This document shows positions 9,221 to 63,969 of a stretch of DNA of 64,000 nucleotides, piece by piece; position 1 is the stretch's first letter; each line of letters opens with the position of its first letter. Origin of the DNA: Octopus sinensis (taxonomy: Eukaryota); contig NC_043009.1 in assembly GCF_006345805.1 (NCBI RefSeq), forward strand, positions 61,070,001-61,134,000, read 5' to 3'. The notes under the pieces are model-generated. The model was not told the DNA's origin and searched no databases. It saw only the letters and a list, made by a program, of their open reading frames with translations. The translations under genes were made by a program, and so were the position numbers.

Positions 9221-9526
9221 ATGGCAGACGGCCTGAGCAGCTTGTTGGCCCGCATCCGCTGCTTGAATACATGTATCCAATGTCTCAGACAAACCCGTCC
9301 CTTGCCCGACAGCCTGTGTTATGTTCCCAGCCAGCTGGAGTACAGGTGTGTACGGTCAAGAATCGTTGACAATGACAAGAGTCCATTCTGTTCGGTGGAC
9401 ATTTATACCAAACCAGACCTCAATAGTGACAAACTTCCTTTCTCGGAAGAACTTCTTCTTTCTCGTGTTGTCGCCTCTGGTCTCGAGTTTTGCAACTCTC
9501 AAGGAAGGTGGATTAAAGTTTTAAAG
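9221..9526 (+). CDS. HECTD3: HECTD3-like E3 ubiquitin ligase, coding exon 1
   Basis: ATG at 9221. Translates MADGLSSLLARIRCL...RPLPDSLCYVP...GLEFCNSQGRWIKVLK, resembling the HECTD3 N-terminus as I recall it (RPLPAALAFVP...GEELCNGHGLWVKLTK). 306 nt, ends AAG|GTATTT, phase 0. Confidence 0.92.
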
Positions 9527-56431: not shown

Positions 56432-58169
56432 CAGTTGTGTATCTGTCACAGTCTGTGTAGTTGCATTTATGTCGAATCACTATTCCATGCAGCCTGGAAG
56501 CTAAATCAGAGAGTGGGTCCTGTGGCAAAGCAGTATGAGATGATTGAGGCTCTCTGGTCTGAGGTTGACTACTGGGGTTCAGCACAGCTACCCTTATCAA
56601 GTTAATAAACCACTGTATTTATATAGTCTCTAAGTCAATAAGATTTAATATGTATACACGCGCACACACACATACATAATGGAGTGGAATCACATCAGTG
56701 AGCAGGTCTCAGATGGTGAAAATAAAATTTTGACACTGAATAATAAAAGTTTGAATTAAGTTTTTTTGTGTTTTTGAATATGTCCTCTTTAATCTGACTG
56801 TAAATTATGGCATGCAAACATATGGATCTGGTCGGTTTAAACATATACCAGGTAGGATATTTAGGCTGGATCTTGATGGTTTAAATCCTAAAAGGTTAAA
56901 CTAGGACTAATGGATTCATGCTAGAGTCAACAAGTTTCAACTAGAAACTCAAAAACTCGATGCAAAACTGTTATGGTTGATGGATGAAAAAACTAGGACT
57001 AGAAATTTAATGTGAATTCCATTAAGGAATCTGTTAGTGTGTGTGTGCAATTCTTTTCGAAGTTGGTTTGTTTGAGAATATGGGTTTTCTAAATATAAAA
57101 GTTTAAAGAGATTTTAATATTGGTTTCAAATTTTGTCGTAAGGCCAGCAATTTCACAGGAGGAGGCAAGTTGATTACATTGACCTCAGTACTCAACTGGT
57201 ACTCAGGCTGCGAGCTGGCAGAAACGTTAGTGTGCTGGGCAAAATGCTTAGTGGTATTTTGTCTGCTGTTACGTTCTGAGTTCAAATTCCGCCGAGGTCG
57301 ACTTTGCCTTTCATCCTTTCGGGGTCGATAAATTAAGTACCAGTTATGCACTGGGATCGATGTAATCGACTTAATCCCTTTGTCTGTCCTTGTTTGTCCC
57401 CTCCATGTTTAGCCCCTTGTGGGCAGTAAAGAAATAGGTACTTATTTTATTGACCCTGAAAGAATGAAAGGCAAAGTTGACCTCAGTGGAATTTGAACTC
57501 AGAACATAAAGACAGACAAAATGCTGCTAAGCATTTCGCCTAGCATGCTAGCGGTTCTGGCAGCTTGTTGCCTTAAATAGATTTTAATCCTAAAATTGCA
57601 GTGAAGTGGGAGGGAGAGTATAAGTGGTAGGAAAATTGAGGTTGTCTCTGCGAAAGTTCAAGTGCATATTATAATCGAATCCACGGGAAAAGGAAATTTA
57701 TAATTAGACATTGAGAGAAAATAAAGAAAAGGCATTTGATTGTAGATGGAAAGAATTGGGGCGAGGAAGCAAATCCATGGCATTAAGTAAGAGAAGACGT
57801 AGAAATCTTTTTAACCCACATTGTTGCATTAAAACCCTTTTGGTACCAAATCTCCCTGAGACTGCCCTGGTTCTGTGAGGCAATCTTTTTGCTTTAAAAT
57901 GTTCCCAATTAAAATCTTTCACTAGATTAATAATTCTTTTTACTTTAGGCACAAGGCCTGAAATTTTAGGGATGTGCTAGTATTGAATCGGTACTTATTT
58001 TATCAACTCCAAAAGGCTGAAAGGCAAAGTCGACCTCAGCAGAATTTGAACTCAGAATGTAAAGATAAATGAAATGCCACCAGTTTATTAACGACAAAAT
58101 TATTTTAGTATATTTTACTAAATTCTTCATTTGTTTCAAAATTCAGTGAAACAAATGCAGTATATTTCA

Positions 58170-58342
58170 TTTTTGGATTTGGTTTGCAAGATTCTTTATT
58201 TGAGTTTGTGTGTTGAAGCATATTCTGTTGTGTCTGGGGAGAGTCATTTTCTTTTTGTGCCTTATTATGTAACACATTTTACCGGTGAGTGTGTTACATT
58301 ATAAGGCACAAAAAGAAAATTACTCTCCCCAGACACAACAGA
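58170..58342. mobile_element. Shorter copy of the 32344-32653 family, nested in a TTAA MITE
   Basis: Same tail (TTTTGGATTTGGTTTGCAAGATTC) and about 50-bp inverted arms. TSD AAATGCAGT(T)ATATTTCA at 58153 and 58343. Confidence 0.7.
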
Positions 58343-59073
58343 AAATGCAGTTATATTTCAGCAGTTATATGGTAGCAAAAGGGTTAAACCAATTTTGTAC
58401 CGTTATAGCAGCCATTTTATAGCCTTTCACACTCCTACCTAAAATGATGTCCCCCTCCCCACCTATACTACTAACTAATCTTCTCACCCCGATTCTTTGT
58501 GTTAACAATCAAACTTCTCTCTTTTATTTCTTTTACATATTTTTAAAATTTCAGTTTCTAATTATAAATGTCTAATTTAAAATCTACTCTTTTGAGTTTT
58601 CTTTCATACTTTTTGTTTATTTATAATTAAATTATCCTTGAACTTACACAGCGATACTCCAGTTTTTCTACAACTGAAATCCTTCACCTCTACCCCCCCC
58701 CCACCTATTTATTCCAATTTAATATAAAATCTCCTTTTGTCTCCTACATGTAGAAAACCCATCCCAACCCAGTCTTTGTTTTAAATTCCATTAATTGAAA
58801 TGGTACCTCATTTATTTGAAAAACTTGTGTCAAGCGAACCACATGGCAGTCTCTAACAAATCACATTCATTTAAATTTAAAATGAAATAATTATAATAAT
58901 AATAATAGTAATAATAATAATGAGTACTACTAGGCTCTGTGCACATCTTACATAAAGCACTTTCAATACAGTAAAAATAAGAGCACCACAACAACCTACA
59001 TTACATACCCTAGGTAAACATAGGTATGCTCGCCAGTGTAGTGAAAACACATGATAAAAATAAGACTACTGAC

Positions 59074-59363
59074 TAATGATGATAATAATGATAATAATAA
59101 TGATAATAATAATAATGATGATAACAATGATGATGATAATGATGATGATGATAATAATAATAATGATAATAATGATGATAATGATGATGATAATGATGAT
59201 GATAATAATGATAATAATGATGATGATAATAATGATTATGATAATAATAATAATAGTGATAATGATAATAATAAAAATAGTGATAATAATAATGATAATA
59301 ATGATAATAGTGATAATAATGATAATAGTAATAATAATGATAAGAATAATGATAAGAATAATG

Positions 59364-59398
<35 letters not shown>
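59074..59398. repeat. (AAT/GAT)n microsatellite
   Basis: Seen directly. Confidence 0.97.
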
Positions 59399-59399
<1 letters not shown>

Positions 59400-60079
59400 G
59401 TATTTAACTTTTAAGCATTCAGATTTCTCTGTCAAATGTAATGGTTATTTATTCCCATTTCAAAATATTAATCATGTATTATCTTGTAGCTTTGCGGTTT
59501 CAAAGATGTGATTGTATATTTTAAATGATGACATTGTAGGGTCGGTATGAGAGACCAGATCTTGCTGGTTTGAACATAAAACATGTAGACTATTTGGGCC
59601 GGATATGACTGGTTTAAATGCTTGAATGGTTAACCACATCTCGGGTCCTTTAACTGTAAATAGCTTCCAGTTTATATATCTATCCTTTTCAAATAATGTA
59701 TGCATAAGCCAATGAACTGCTGCAACTCCAACCACCACCACCACTACGGTCACTACTACTACGACCAACAGTCACTGCTGCTACTGCTATTTTGGCCACT
59801 GGTCATTTCCCCAACTTTAGTCAACACACAAGACAGCTATTATGCTCTCCACAACAAAAAAAAAACCACCACGTGGATTCTGTTGAGACTAGTAAGAAAC
59901 AATTATGAACTTTTTTATTACACTTAACTTTTAAAAATATTTTTGATAAGGTTCGTTTTTTTCAAGAAGAATCGAAACATGTAAAATTTCTAAGAAAATT
60001 AAAATTTATATTATATAGTGGCATTTTCAAACTTCTTTTTTATAAATATATATGTATTTTTTAAAATTTTATTTTTCAG

Positions 60080-60193
60080 AGAATTATCATTAACCCTGTC
60101 TGGTGCTGACAACATCTACCTCCCATCAAAAGTGATAGTGTGTGGAGGGGATGAATTTAATATGAAAGATTTAAATGTAGTTACTTTAGAAAG
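60080..60193 (+). CDS. HECTD3: HECTD3 coding exon 5 (DOC domain)
   Basis: TTTTTCAG acceptor. Translates (K)ELSLTLSGADNIYLPSKVIVCGGDEFNMKDLNVVTLE, with the DOC D..Y.P..V.V.GG motif. Donor AG|GTGAGT, phase 2 to 2. Confidence 0.92.
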
Positions 60194-60401
60194 GTGAGTT
60201 TCCCCCCTGCCACCTGCCACATTCGGCTTCTTGCTCTTTCTTCTATTCATTTCATTAATGGATTTGTATTATTTACTGATGTTTTGCTTGTAACCCTTTG
60301 ATTACTTGTAGTACGTGTGTGTGTTTCTTCCCATATATGTGTGTGTGTGTGTATAGATGTATATTTCACTTACGATTAAATAAGTTGGTCTTCATATTTG
60401 A

Positions 60402-60482
60402 AGCTCTGATGAAACTGTGAAGTGTTACTCAGGCACTTAATTATGAGAACACCGCATCTTATAGTGGAAACAGCTGTAAGCT
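60402..60482 (+). ncRNA. Type-I hammerhead ribozyme fold with long stem II
   Basis: AGCT-CTGATGA(60406-12)-long stem II (ACTGTGA/TTATAGT, GTGTT/AACAC, CTCA/TGAG)-GAAA(60467-70)-CAGCTG-TA-AGCT. Stem III region ACAGCTGT is palindromic; cleavage triplet GUA. Confidence 0.72.
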
Positions 60483-60563
60483 AATGAACTTCAGGAGATA
60501 ATCATTTATTCCTTTGTCATCTTGTTTCTTACACACACACACACACACATATCTGTGCATGTG

Positions 60564-60617
<54 letters not shown>

Positions 60618-60676
60618 TATATAATGTAAATGTTGAACTATGGGAATGAGTGTTCAACACTGTATTGGTAGATAAA

Positions 60677-60890
60677 ATTTCTTTATTTGTGTATCAAGGC
60701 TTCCATTGGTTTCATGTTAAGAAAGATATGTTAATATGTTAACAATTTTTCAAGCCAATCACATACTGTAATGGTGTTCCAAAATGGAGACGAATGCCAT
60801 TCCTCCATGTGATTGGCTTGAAAAATTAAGATATTAAGATATTTTTCTTAATATGAAACCATGGTAGCCTTAATACACAAATAAAGAAAT
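60677..60890. repeat. Imperfect palindrome, about 90-bp arms
   Basis: ATTTCTTTATTTGTGTAT...TTTTCAAGCCAATCACAT paired with ATGTGATTGGCTTGAAAA...ATACACAAATAAAGAAAT. Confidence 0.9.
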
Positions 60891-61415
60891 AGATATATTT
60901 GATGTCATAAGGATTAAGCAGCCTTCTGCTTTTTCTATTCGAAGGGCTTTTATCCCAATATTTACATATTGTGTCATGTCAAAAATGTTATGCTGTTACA
61001 CAAACATGACCTAAAAAGAATTTGCTCTACCAGACCTGAATGAAGTTGGCCTCTTACCCTTGCCTGTGAAAAAGGCTATCACTGTCAACATTCCCACTAC
61101 CACCACCACCACCACCACTACCAACAACAACAACAGCAATAACAAACCATCACCATTACTATTTTCATTACCACCATCTCTACAATCACTTCCACCACCA
61201 CTTTTCCATTCTACAAGTACCTTCTTTATAAAAATACATTTATGTTTTTTTCAAAACATACTTATGTTATTGTTGTTGTGAAGCCACTGTGTGATGTGTG
61301 TTTGTTGTTGTATCATAAAAGACCTGTTTATTGTTGTGTGATGTTGTGCTGTTACACACACACACACACATGTTTATATATTTGTTATTTATTGTTTATC
61401 GTTGTTCCTTTACAG

Positions 61416-61498
61416 ACCCGTCAACAATATAAAGGACATCTGTATTTTGGAAGGAATGAGGCAGCACTACCCAATTATTATGATTAAACTAAAACAAG
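61416..61498 (+). CDS. HECTD3: HECTD3 coding exon 6
   Basis: CCTTTACAG acceptor. Translates (R)PVNNIKDICILEGMRQHYPIIMIKLKQ, similar to DVCVLEDMTVHLPIIEIRI. Donor G|GTAAAT, phase 2 to 1. Confidence 0.9.
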
Positions 61499-62290
61499 GT
61501 AAATGACACACACACCTCACACATTACTGAATATTGCTAGAACCAGAAGAACACCGATGTAGTATGTCTATTCACATTTATCACAGGTGTTTGGTTCCAA
61601 GGAAACACTGTGTCAAATGAATCAAAGATTTTTGAATAATAGAAAATATGAAGAAAGTATTTAAATAGAAATTCTTGTGTTTCTACATTTTCTTTTTTAT
61701 GTCCTCCTGTATAGGTTGACTTTACAACCTGCACCAGTAAAGTTCAAAGGTCACTCTTGAAGTTTCTTATTGTTTTGAAAATATTTAAAATAATTTTCCA
61801 CTGTGCCTGAGAGAGCAGTTATAATAAATTTGAATGAACAGGTCTTTTTCTACATATTATGATATATATAAAAAATATAGAGTATCTTTCTTGCACACTG
61901 GATTTTTTAATGGGATTTCATAACTCATAATAATGGTGCACATTATACACACAAGTATGCATTATATAAGAATAAATACAGTAAGTCATTGGCTTCAGCG
62001 ACTCTTAAGGTGTGGTAAGATGAGCTGGAACTTAACTTGATACTATAATTTTAAGATAGATAAGGAGTTGTGTGTGTATATATATATATATTACGGAAAT
62101 GTACTTGCATAGCAAGTGACCTGATTTGAGATCATGTGCTGGAATGAAAACAATTGCAGTGTGGAAGGTGTTTATAAGCCATTTAAGAAACACACAAAAA
62201 CTGTTAGATTTACTTCAACATTTAAATTTAATTTGCCAAAATATTTTCGTTGCTTTGAGACTGCGACCTGTTCACTGACAAAATTCCATG

Positions 62291-62333
<43 letters not shown>

Positions 62334-62353
62334 CACACACACACATACACACA

Positions 62354-63183
62354 CAGGGTGTGATAAATAGATTATCATCTAATTTCTGCAAAAATGAAAA
62401 TAACACTGACATTTCACTTTAACAGATATATTTACCAAAATTACATAAAAATATCTTGAAATACTAAAGAGTAAATTTATTCAATAAAATTGCCATTGGC
62501 TTCAACCACAGCCTCCAGACAACTTCAGAATCTCCTGCAACTCTTCTGGACGGTCTCTTTGTTTAAGTTGGTGAATGCTGCCATAATCCTTGCCTTCAGT
62601 TCATCTTTGGTGTTACAAGGAGTTTTGTTGGTCTCTTGCTCAACTGTGCCCCCACACATAATAACGAAGGGGGTTGCAGTTTGGGGAGTTAGGTAGCCAG
62701 ATGTTAAGGGTGATGAGGTTGCAGAAATTATCTGACAGCCATGACTGGGTTCTCTTGCTTGTGTGGCATAGTGCAGAGTCCTGTTGCCAGACATAGGGTC
62801 TTCCCACAGCCACCCTCTTGACCCAGGGTAGCACTACCTCCTCCAGGCACTCTGTGTTGAGTGTGAGGCCGTGTGGGAAGATAAATGGAGGCATAACGTT
62901 GCCATCACTAGTGATCACTCCAAACACCATGATGTTGACTGGATGTTTGATTTTTATTACTCTCGGTACATGTTCATACTGGAGCTTCTGGCATGAATGC
63001 CAAGCAGTACAGCATGTCAATTCCAAATTTCTGGCAGAGTGAATTGCATCATGGTGCTGTTTTTCTCGCAGACAGTGCCCAACTGACCCTACTATACTGT
63101 GTAGTCAACAAAATCAAAAACAAACAATACACATGTGCAAAATTAAAAATATAAAATAGCAACAATTTACCCATTGCATCCTG
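62354..63183 (-). mobile_element. Second copy of the same deleted Tc1/mariner family
   Basis: CAGGGTG...CCTG|TA ends. Same KHPVNIMVFGVITSDG and WQQDSA motifs, frameshifted. Confidence 0.9.
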
Positions 63184-63269
63184 TATGTGTGTGTGTGTGT
63201 GTATGTAGATAAGCTAGAGTTGTGTGTCTTTTCTAAGGGTCAACCTTTTAGCTAAACATATTGATAGAT

Positions 63270-63565
63270 TATTTACATTCGATGGATATTTGTCCTCATC
63301 TTGTTTGTTGTTAACATGTTTCGGCTGATATACCTTCCAGCCTTCTTCAGGTGTCTTGGGGAAATTTCGAACCTGGGTTCTCATTCCTAAGGTATTTTTC
63401 GAGAAGCCAGGTTTGAAATTTTCCCAAAACACCTGAAGAAGGCTGGAGGGTATATCAGCCGAAACGTTGTGTTAACAACAAACAAGAGGAGGACAAATAT
63501 CCGTCAAATGTAAACAATGTAAATAATGTACATAATTCCTCATCTCTTAAATATAGAACTGTATT
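63270..63565. mobile_element. PLE-derived inverted-repeat mini-element carrying a hammerhead on each arm
   Basis: About 100-bp inverted arms, an unpaired 3' tail of about 45 nt, and a flanking 12-bp direct repeat ATATTGA(T/C)AGAT at 63258-63269 and 63566-63577. Confidence 0.75.
63428..63473 (+). ncRNA. Minimal type-I hammerhead ribozyme fold
   Basis: AACAC-CTGAAGA-A-GGCTG-(10 nt)-CAGCC-GAAA-CG-TT-GTGTT. Stem I AACAC/GTGTT; palindromic ACGT stem III; triplet GUU. Confidence 0.75.
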
Positions 63566-63803: not shown

Positions 63804-63969
63804 TTGATGGCTTAGATGTACGGGTGAGAGGCCTTAAGATCCAGTCTTCTAAAGAACGCACTCTTGGATTCGATCGAGATTTCTTCTGCGAGAGGAAGCT
63901 TTTCCGTTATCCTCGTCTTGAGGCTTATACCCCCGATGAGTTGTACTACAGATCTATAGCTTTGCAAAG
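63804..63969 (+). CDS. HECTD3: HECTD3 coding exon 7; gene continues beyond the window
   Basis: TTTCAG acceptor. Translates (V)DGLDVRVRGLKIQSSKERTLG...RYPRLEAYTPDELYYRSIALQR, matching DGIDVRLRGVKIKSS...RYPRLEG..PEVLYRRA.LLQR. Donor AG|GTAAGC, phase 1 to 2. Confidence 0.95.

Follow-up and report, generated by a model that had tools for sequence, protein, structure and literature searches.

HH9 and HH10 are type I hammerhead ribozymes that lie in introns on the sense strand and are single-copy and conserved. The intronic location of amniote hammerheads is described in a review (PMC6765202). Metazoan Penelope-like elements, too, carry hammerheads whose stem III is short and palindromic; in vitro these show no activity as monomers and weak activity as dimers (PMC4209133). 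PMC8557442 and PMC11167929 describe these elements as bearing a tail and as occurring in tandem and inverted copies. Both papers treat the role of the hammerhead as still open, and in one Poseidon element it was dispensable for insertion in vitro (PMC11167929). Here we analyze a hammerhead motif in an intron of the octopus HECTD3 gene, within a 64-kb stretch of DNA that we call the window. Our preferred reading, to which we assign a probability of roughly 85%, is that the motif belongs to a dispersed repeat, of which it is one decayed copy with a type I hammerhead that has a 54-nt stem II; that the repeat is likely an old Hydra-clade Penelope-like element's 3′ pseudo-LTR; and that this copy is predicted to misfold and likely spares the HECTD3 pre-mRNA.

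A HECTD3-like protein was placed on the window with coding exons at 9221, 42634, 50204, and 56169, the next being exon 5 (Table 1), and the exon at 63806–63970 matches a protein named HECTD3-like at 100% identity. By this exon order the motif sits in intron 5. Contigs of two sequencing runs join exon 5 to the exon at 61416 (exon 6). A 158-nt contig of run X1, which we guess to be RNA, covers 60367–60488 with no differences and is uninformative on cleavage because it ends only 10 nt past the cut site. Pfam searches with exon 5 and exon 7 returned nothing useful.

The original prediction, a type I hammerhead on the sense strand about 210 nt past the exon 5 donor, is confirmed in its architecture. 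The CUGANGA, GAAA, and UH parts of the core occur in type I order, all the elements it listed are present, the core begins 213 nt from the donor, and the predicted cut after 60478 agrees with the position of the GUA triplet (Table 1). Stems I, II, and III can all be formed in a constrained fold, with a stem III of 2 bp that reaches 8 bp only as a dimer. The Watson–Crick pair at 10.1–11.1 is absent, its place being taken by A-G. The motif is not a product of chance: a hammerhead descriptor found three motifs in the window as compared with a mean of 0.03 over 100 dinucleotide shuffles, in which a strict form of the descriptor found none. The Rfam search proposed as a check gave no match to the hammerhead models in the interval 58000–63000 at E values up to 10. 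The unconstrained fold of the region is no better than that of shuffles (z −0.46) and adopts a different structure.

Table 1. Features of the intron 5 motif and its surroundings, in window coordinates
Feature	Positions	Strand	Details
HECTD3 coding exon 5	60080–60193	+	Donor GT at 60194
(TG)n tract, left side of insertion	60339–60352	n/a	Window letters
12-nt inverted match to the second 3′ end, where the element's tail stops	60361–60372	−	Tail ends of L133, L142
Pseudo-LTR copy, subfamily A	60378–60530	+	5′-truncated, stops at first 3′ end, tail-less
Stem I, 5′ strand	60391–60405	+	Distal TTCAT 60391–60395, 6-nt bulge, proximal AGCT 60402–60405
Core CUGAUGA (DNA CTGATGA)	60406–60412	+	Window letters
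Stem II arm	60413–60466	+	54 nt; A-G opposition (60413/60466) at its base
Core GAAA, stem III, and GUA triplet	60467–60478	+	GAAA 60467–60470; C-AGCT-G 60471–60476 (2-bp stem III); GUA 60476–60478
Palindrome ACAGCUGU	60470–60477	+	Spans stem III
Stem I, 3′ strand	60479–60488	+	AGCT 60479–60482, distal ATGAA 60484–60488
(CA)n/(TA)n tract	60531–60620	n/a	Immediately 3′ of the element's first end; likely insertion target

The window motif is one member of a dispersed repeat with at least several hundred copies and is not specific to the locus. A search of the animal's own genome with the motif yielded 1348 first-look candidates, 40 of which were scored, at 82–86% identity and spread over many chromosomes. 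A 23-nt family motif had 456 exact matches in the genome and its reversed control none, and the copy number estimated from per-site divergence is about 2,000 or more. The profile match of the window copy extends over 60380–60527 (E 4.6e-45). Seventy near-complete copies were sorted, using the diagnostic sites themselves, into subfamilies A (17, including the window copy), B (37), and C (4), with 12 unassigned; copies diverge by 10–15% from the majority of their own group. The base opposition beside the core is A-G in 15 of the 17 subfamily A copies and A-A in 34 of the 37 subfamily B copies and is therefore inherited. The A-G mismatch that had been entered as a caveat is thus real but is typical of the family and not a defect of this copy. 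Similarly, the (TG)n and (CA)n tracts said to flank an island are present, but the island is the transposon insertion itself, which had been missed. Between the window copy and the subfamily A majority 13 of 111 sites differ, seven of them in the stem II arm. An intact core is kept in 28 of the 70 copies, and so its retention in the window copy is unremarkable.

The structure of the family is paired in 86.4% of cells (44 ungapped of the 70 copies), a value to be compared with 86.2% for shuffles and 35–38% for slid controls; pairing with no excess over shuffles is the pattern given by neutral decay from a structured master. Only one pairing signal stands above shuffles: subfamilies differ by a G-C/A-U switch at the stem II base (26 and 13 copies). 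Covariation backing for the long arm inside the family is thus thin, amounting to one compensatory event and not a broad signal. The core in subfamilies B and C reads CCGAUGA, CUGAUGA, or CCAAUGA, as an ancestral CCGAUGA (U4C) would come to read through CpG decay, and in the young families L182 and L184 it reads CCGAAGA. A candidate pseudoknot between loop II and stem I (CUCAA with UUGAG) can be seen by eye in the family majority.

The repeat has two fixed 3′ ends, which lie 52 nt (end 1) and 148 nt (end 2) past the cut site, about 95 nt apart. We sorted 95 distinct copies by where they stop: 59 do so at end 1 and 34 at end 2, and two are partial. Microsatellite follows end 1 in 39 of 59 copies and end 2 in 24 of 34 (63 of 93 ends in total), the random background being 21%. 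An inverted 5′ partner, which often uses the other end, is found at 11 of 29 loci and also at L023. The 3′ ends, inverted partners, microsatellite sites, and a tail that leads toward an ORF (see below) indicate that the repeat is likely a pseudo-LTR belonging to an old Penelope-like element; two 3′ ends with an optional tail, 5′ truncation, inverted partners, and microsatellite targets are all characteristic of Penelope pseudo-LTRs, and tails, inversions, and targets of this kind are described in PMC8557442 and PMC11167929. The window copy runs to end 1, where (CA)n begins, and has at its 5′ junction a 12-nt inverted match to end 2 that, short as it is, is likely the remnant of an inverted 5′ partner. 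Tails are about 95 nt in the window family and about 150 nt in the L182 family; those of Penelope-like elements are given as 30–40 bp (PMC8557442). One tandem pair of family copies, with a spacing of 223 nt, was found. When we walked 5′ toward the parental ORF, shared sequence faded into TG-rich repeats about 330 nt upstream of the core, a stall that we attribute to the long TG-rich 3′ UTRs that intact sister elements also carry. At one copy (L034:1310–1500) a 3′ end like that of Naiad_Obim abuts the upstream part of the element, probably as a nested insertion.

Several copies extend past end 2 into a common reading frame, and one of them (L145) holds the 3′ half of the hammerhead, the tail, and the start of the ORF in a single piece. 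The 45-aa ORF piece behind the tail matches the N-termini of long genome ORFs of about 700–900 aa, in which a YRDD motif is accompanied by a YIG motif at the C-terminus. Relatives of these ORFs carry PF26215, and look-alike clusters have HTH_animal and GIY-YIG. What joins the window family to the protein is a stretch of about 45 aa, seen in a few broken copies, and no full-length ORF of the family was found among the genome copies. The element was absent from the 30 loci examined of 147 GIY-YIG matches, Pfam returned nothing useful for three sister ORFs, and a PDB profile search gave no matches. The matched N-termini resemble, by eye, those of Hydra-1_Obim and Hydra-1_Ajap in the PMC8557442 supplement, and the ORFs are far from the genome's Neptune-type ORF (22–26% identity). 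The window family likely belongs to the Hydra clade, as judged from this likeness by eye.

How does the window hammerhead compare with those described before? With the pseudo-LTR hammerheads of PMC4209133 it shares the type I order, a short proximal stem I, a stem III of 1–2 bp, a palindromic loop, an expected dependence on dimers, and an occurrence mostly as dispersed solo copies with some inverted pairs. It differs in its arm, since their helix II has 4–8 bp whereas the window arm has 54 nt (in the family, a 12-bp basal helix, an internal loop, and a terminal hairpin), and in the pair beside the core, which is a conserved G10.1-C11.1 there and A-G or A-A in the window family. Shared with the Hydra clade, including Hydra-1_Obim, as described in PMC8557442 are an SxKNIPIP-type ORF start, a C-terminal nuclease (in sister elements), (TA)n targets, and a hammerhead near the 3′ end with a GAAAC-palindrome-GUA stem III. 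Noncanonical pairs next to the core (U-U) also occur among the Hydra motifs of File S2 of that paper, and core-adjacent C-A or U-U oppositions are found in published and related motifs. In contrast to the window family, however, all the Hydra hammerheads of File S2 have a short stem II, and that of Hydra-1_Obim differs from ours in sequence. Long core spacers, marked as noncanonical, are present in the spike-moss elements PLE-X1_sMoe and PLE-X1_sTam and in the HHR_half_core of Naiad, but these are single or incomplete motifs from other clades and hosts and not a design common to many families (PMC8557442). The Naiad 3′ end that precedes Naiad_Hpol in the supplement of that paper has CUGAUGA and GAAAC separated by about 46 nt and surrounded by several complementary segments, and Naiad half cores may be full, pseudoknotted hammerheads. 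Like HH9 and HH10, the window motif is type I, intronic, and sense; unlike them it is multi-copy rather than single-copy, is decaying, and has no Rfam match. Non-LTR retrozymes resemble it in the type I order, the short palindromic stem III, and the link to Penelope-like elements, but they form tandem arrays of monomers, whereas the window family lacks arrays and its tail enters an ORF.

We examined the predicted folding with a nearest-neighbor model, which leaves out the core, tertiary contacts, folding during transcription, and proteins. The hammerhead-shaped fold has a free energy of −12.8 kcal/mol for the window copy versus −25.1 for the subfamily A majority, and its gap to the free ensemble is 12.4 versus 6.6 kcal/mol. 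A rough dimer balance comes to +13.7 for the window copy, +2.0 for the subfamily A majority, and −3.5 for the young L182 family. Of 47 ungapped copies, 29 could be scored by the free-ensemble gap and 18 could not; the window copy comes 23rd in that ranking. Stem II is predicted to form with a probability of 0.91 in the subfamily A majority and stem I with a probability of 0.04, the latter because loop III offers an AGCU with which the stem's 5′ strand can pair instead. In the window copy the pairing probabilities of both stems are predicted to be about 0 in three sequence contexts, and the hammerhead fold is by this prediction thermodynamically inaccessible. The three helical segments originally ascribed to stem II do appear in the constrained fold of the window copy, but the family fold is different, and the middle segment relies on changes specific to this copy. 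The 8-bp ACAGCUGU duplex has a predicted energy of −11.1 kcal/mol and, when formed between molecules, would roughly offset the monomer off state. Dependence on dimerization through this palindrome, which the original prediction had invoked, would accord with the Penelope-like element hammerheads of PMC4209133. In the window copy all core bases and the palindrome are retained, as are the four pairs of proximal stem I and 11 of the 12 pairs at the base of stem II, and this retention counts against our preferred reading. Nevertheless, the window copy is likely inactive by the folding model. With 13 differences, near-zero pairing of stems I and II, and no dimer partner in the gene (the window and the 100 kb that follow it together span all of HECTD3 and yielded no second family copy), a role in HECTD3 is unlikely. 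The further proposal that the motif cuts HECTD3 pre-mRNA is thus not supported, the more so since such remnants are ordinary in this region (see below).

In the mechanism that we envisage for the active ancestor, two hammerheads would pair through ACAGCUGU, thereby completing stem III, and would then cut after GUA, so that the resulting RNA would begin about 50 nt upstream of end 1, 150 nt upstream of end 2, and 190 nt upstream of the start of the ORF. A lone ancestral monomer would rest in a slipped register, with the 5′ strand of stem I paired to the AGCU of loop III; this register would constitute an off state that dimerization would relieve. The window copy would have arrived, 5′-truncated, by target-primed reverse transcription into a microsatellite in intron 5 and would have drifted since.

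A different view is that the host has kept a transposon hammerhead that cuts HECTD3 pre-mRNA at a low rate, two nascent transcripts dimerizing or one pairing with the RNA of another family copy, and so tunes splicing or transcript level. We consider this very unlikely, even though the motif is in the sense orientation 213 nt past the donor with its core and palindrome intact, the palindrome duplex (8 bp) is worth −11.1 kcal/mol, hundreds of potential trans partners share the palindrome, and amniote intronic hammerheads have been proposed to act on pre-mRNA (PMC6765202). The 13 differences in 111 sites look like drift and are mostly destabilizing, the probability of stems I and II is near 0, the gene has no second copy, cores are intact in 28 of 70 copies in any event, and the joins between exon 5 and exon 6 are normal in two runs. 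Moreover, metazoan Penelope-like hammerheads lacked activity as monomers and had low activity as dimers in vitro (PMC4209133).

The two other explanations concern the identity of the repeat. We hold it improbable that it is a non-autonomous element, such as a non-LTR retrozyme or a SINE-like element with borrowed Penelope-like ends, instead of a truncated autonomous one. Its copies are dispersed monomers or inverted pairs and do not form tandem arrays, their downstream sequence never loops back to upstream sequence, and their tails enter an ORF start. On the other side stand the one tandem pair (223-nt spacing), the derivation of animal retrozymes from pseudo-LTRs reported in a preprint (bioRxiv 10.64898/2026.07.22.740005), and the fact that no copy was traced 5′ into the ORF, upstream similarity fading about 330 nt before the core; the TG-rich 3′ UTRs of intact sisters account for this stalled walk. 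That the repeat is instead the 3′ end of Naiad, with the “half core” of Octopus Naiad being actually a full hammerhead with a long stem II, is scarcely credible. PMC8557442 does describe an HHR_half_core for Naiad_Ovul, with the second half 35–50 nt away, and (TA)n targets, and a Naiad_Obim-like 3′ end adjoins one copy (L034), but six family motifs of 12–13 nt had no matches in the supplement of that paper, the printed 3′ end of Naiad_Obim differs in sequence, and the ORF into which the tail leads begins like ORFs whose nuclease is C-terminal and not like the Naiad N-terminus. We rejected identity with Naiad as contradicted by the ORF link and lacking a consensus match.

If the window copy is a decayed pseudo-LTR, as we favor, then the locus is ordinary transposon debris, and what it leads to is a family design of modest importance. 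Sister elements linked to ORFs carry a type I hammerhead with a palindromic stem III and a long stem II of unrelated sequence: a stem II of 51–59 nt recurs in five such lineages, with lengths of 56 nt (L182/L188), 55 nt (L185), 51 nt (L186/L190, with A-C beside the core), 59 and 57 nt (L183/L189), and 53 nt (L194). Long motifs were also found without a tie to an ORF (L061, 49 nt; L036, 53 nt; L237, 63 nt). Six of the 12 own-genome rows in our tree, which excludes the window family and the named references, have a long stem II, three have a short one (L181, 10 nt; L184, 31 nt; L187, 17 nt), and in three no motif was found. All the long-arm rows fall in one clade (96/98), which includes L187, with L181 and L184 outside. 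An arm of 77 nt, likewise without a tie to an ORF, was read by eye in a family (L146, L323–L347) with a 3-bp stem I, two 3′ ends, and 2072 first-look candidates at 90–95%. Its tail is 76–79% like that of L187, which has a 17-nt stem II; thus, the length of stem II can change sharply, which argues against a fixed length.

L182 is young and intact, with a 778-aa ORF and identical hammerheads in both of its pseudo-LTRs. The best 40 of 1059 first-look candidates of its family are at 98–100%, and all of 30 loci stop at end 1 (18), at end 2 (10), or in the ORF (2). It provides a clean substrate on which to ask whether the 56-nt stem II is filler that the element tolerates or an arm with a function. 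As a control, we applied the same descriptor, with spacers of up to 100 nt permitted, to 77 related metagenome loci. A motif was present in 40 of them, and all 38 distinct motifs had a stem II of 10–25 nt; no motif was found in the other 37 loci, many of which are short contigs. Rfam at the gathering threshold found no hammerhead in six loci tested, intact sister families among them, and Rfam models and short-stem descriptors undercount hammerheads in the octopus genome. What is new is the recurrent long-arm design, hammerheads in pseudo-LTRs and odd long-spacer cases being already known; we found no report of a recurrent 50–60-nt stem II in octopus elements in the literature searched, and Repbase or Dfam may hold it.

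A bolder proposal, which we regard as rather unlikely though worth stating, is that octopus Hydra-type elements evolved an arm of about 55 nt, similar in length across families unrelated in sequence, with a second job such as docking of the element's protein or cap-independent translation of the cut RNA, and that octopus introns would contain thousands of dimer-gated ribozymes, unannotated because existing models miss these motifs, with host pre-mRNA open to cutting by the young ones among them. Viral type I hammerheads can initiate cap-independent translation (PMC13725137), a precedent that suggests it as a possible role in these elements, whose hammerheads lie 190–260 nt ahead of the ORFs.

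Finally, we note that the three intact-core hammerheads of the window all lie within 3.5 kb of one another (59943–63470), each sense to HECTD3. This uniform orientation is not what selection against cutting would favor, though n is only three. At 59700–60050 (+), with a core at 59943, intron 4 holds the 3′ end of an abundant Penelope-like element of the Neptune type; it has the same 3′ UTR as L080, L086, and L087 and a core-variant hammerhead, UUGAUAA (U3-A8). The third element, at 63260–63560 in intron 6, is an inverted pair of pseudo-LTRs with a sense core at 63433 and a minimal hammerhead with a 21-nt stem II, GAAACGUU. Since these two hammerheads come from unrelated element families, such remnants are ordinary here. 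In the next 100 kb the same descriptor found three further hammerheads, one on the plus strand and two on the minus strand. One of those on the minus strand (L237) lies within HECTD3 past the window, antisense to the gene, with a 63-nt stem II and GAAAC-GAUC-G. Three other Neptune-type 3′ UTRs (L093, L094, and L098) keep GAAACCGGU, the core's first half being altered or distant, and represent possible further core variants. The interval 58223–58343 contains a 120-nt near-perfect inverted repeat whose arms are 38 bp long; it may be a miniature element or an inverted insertion.
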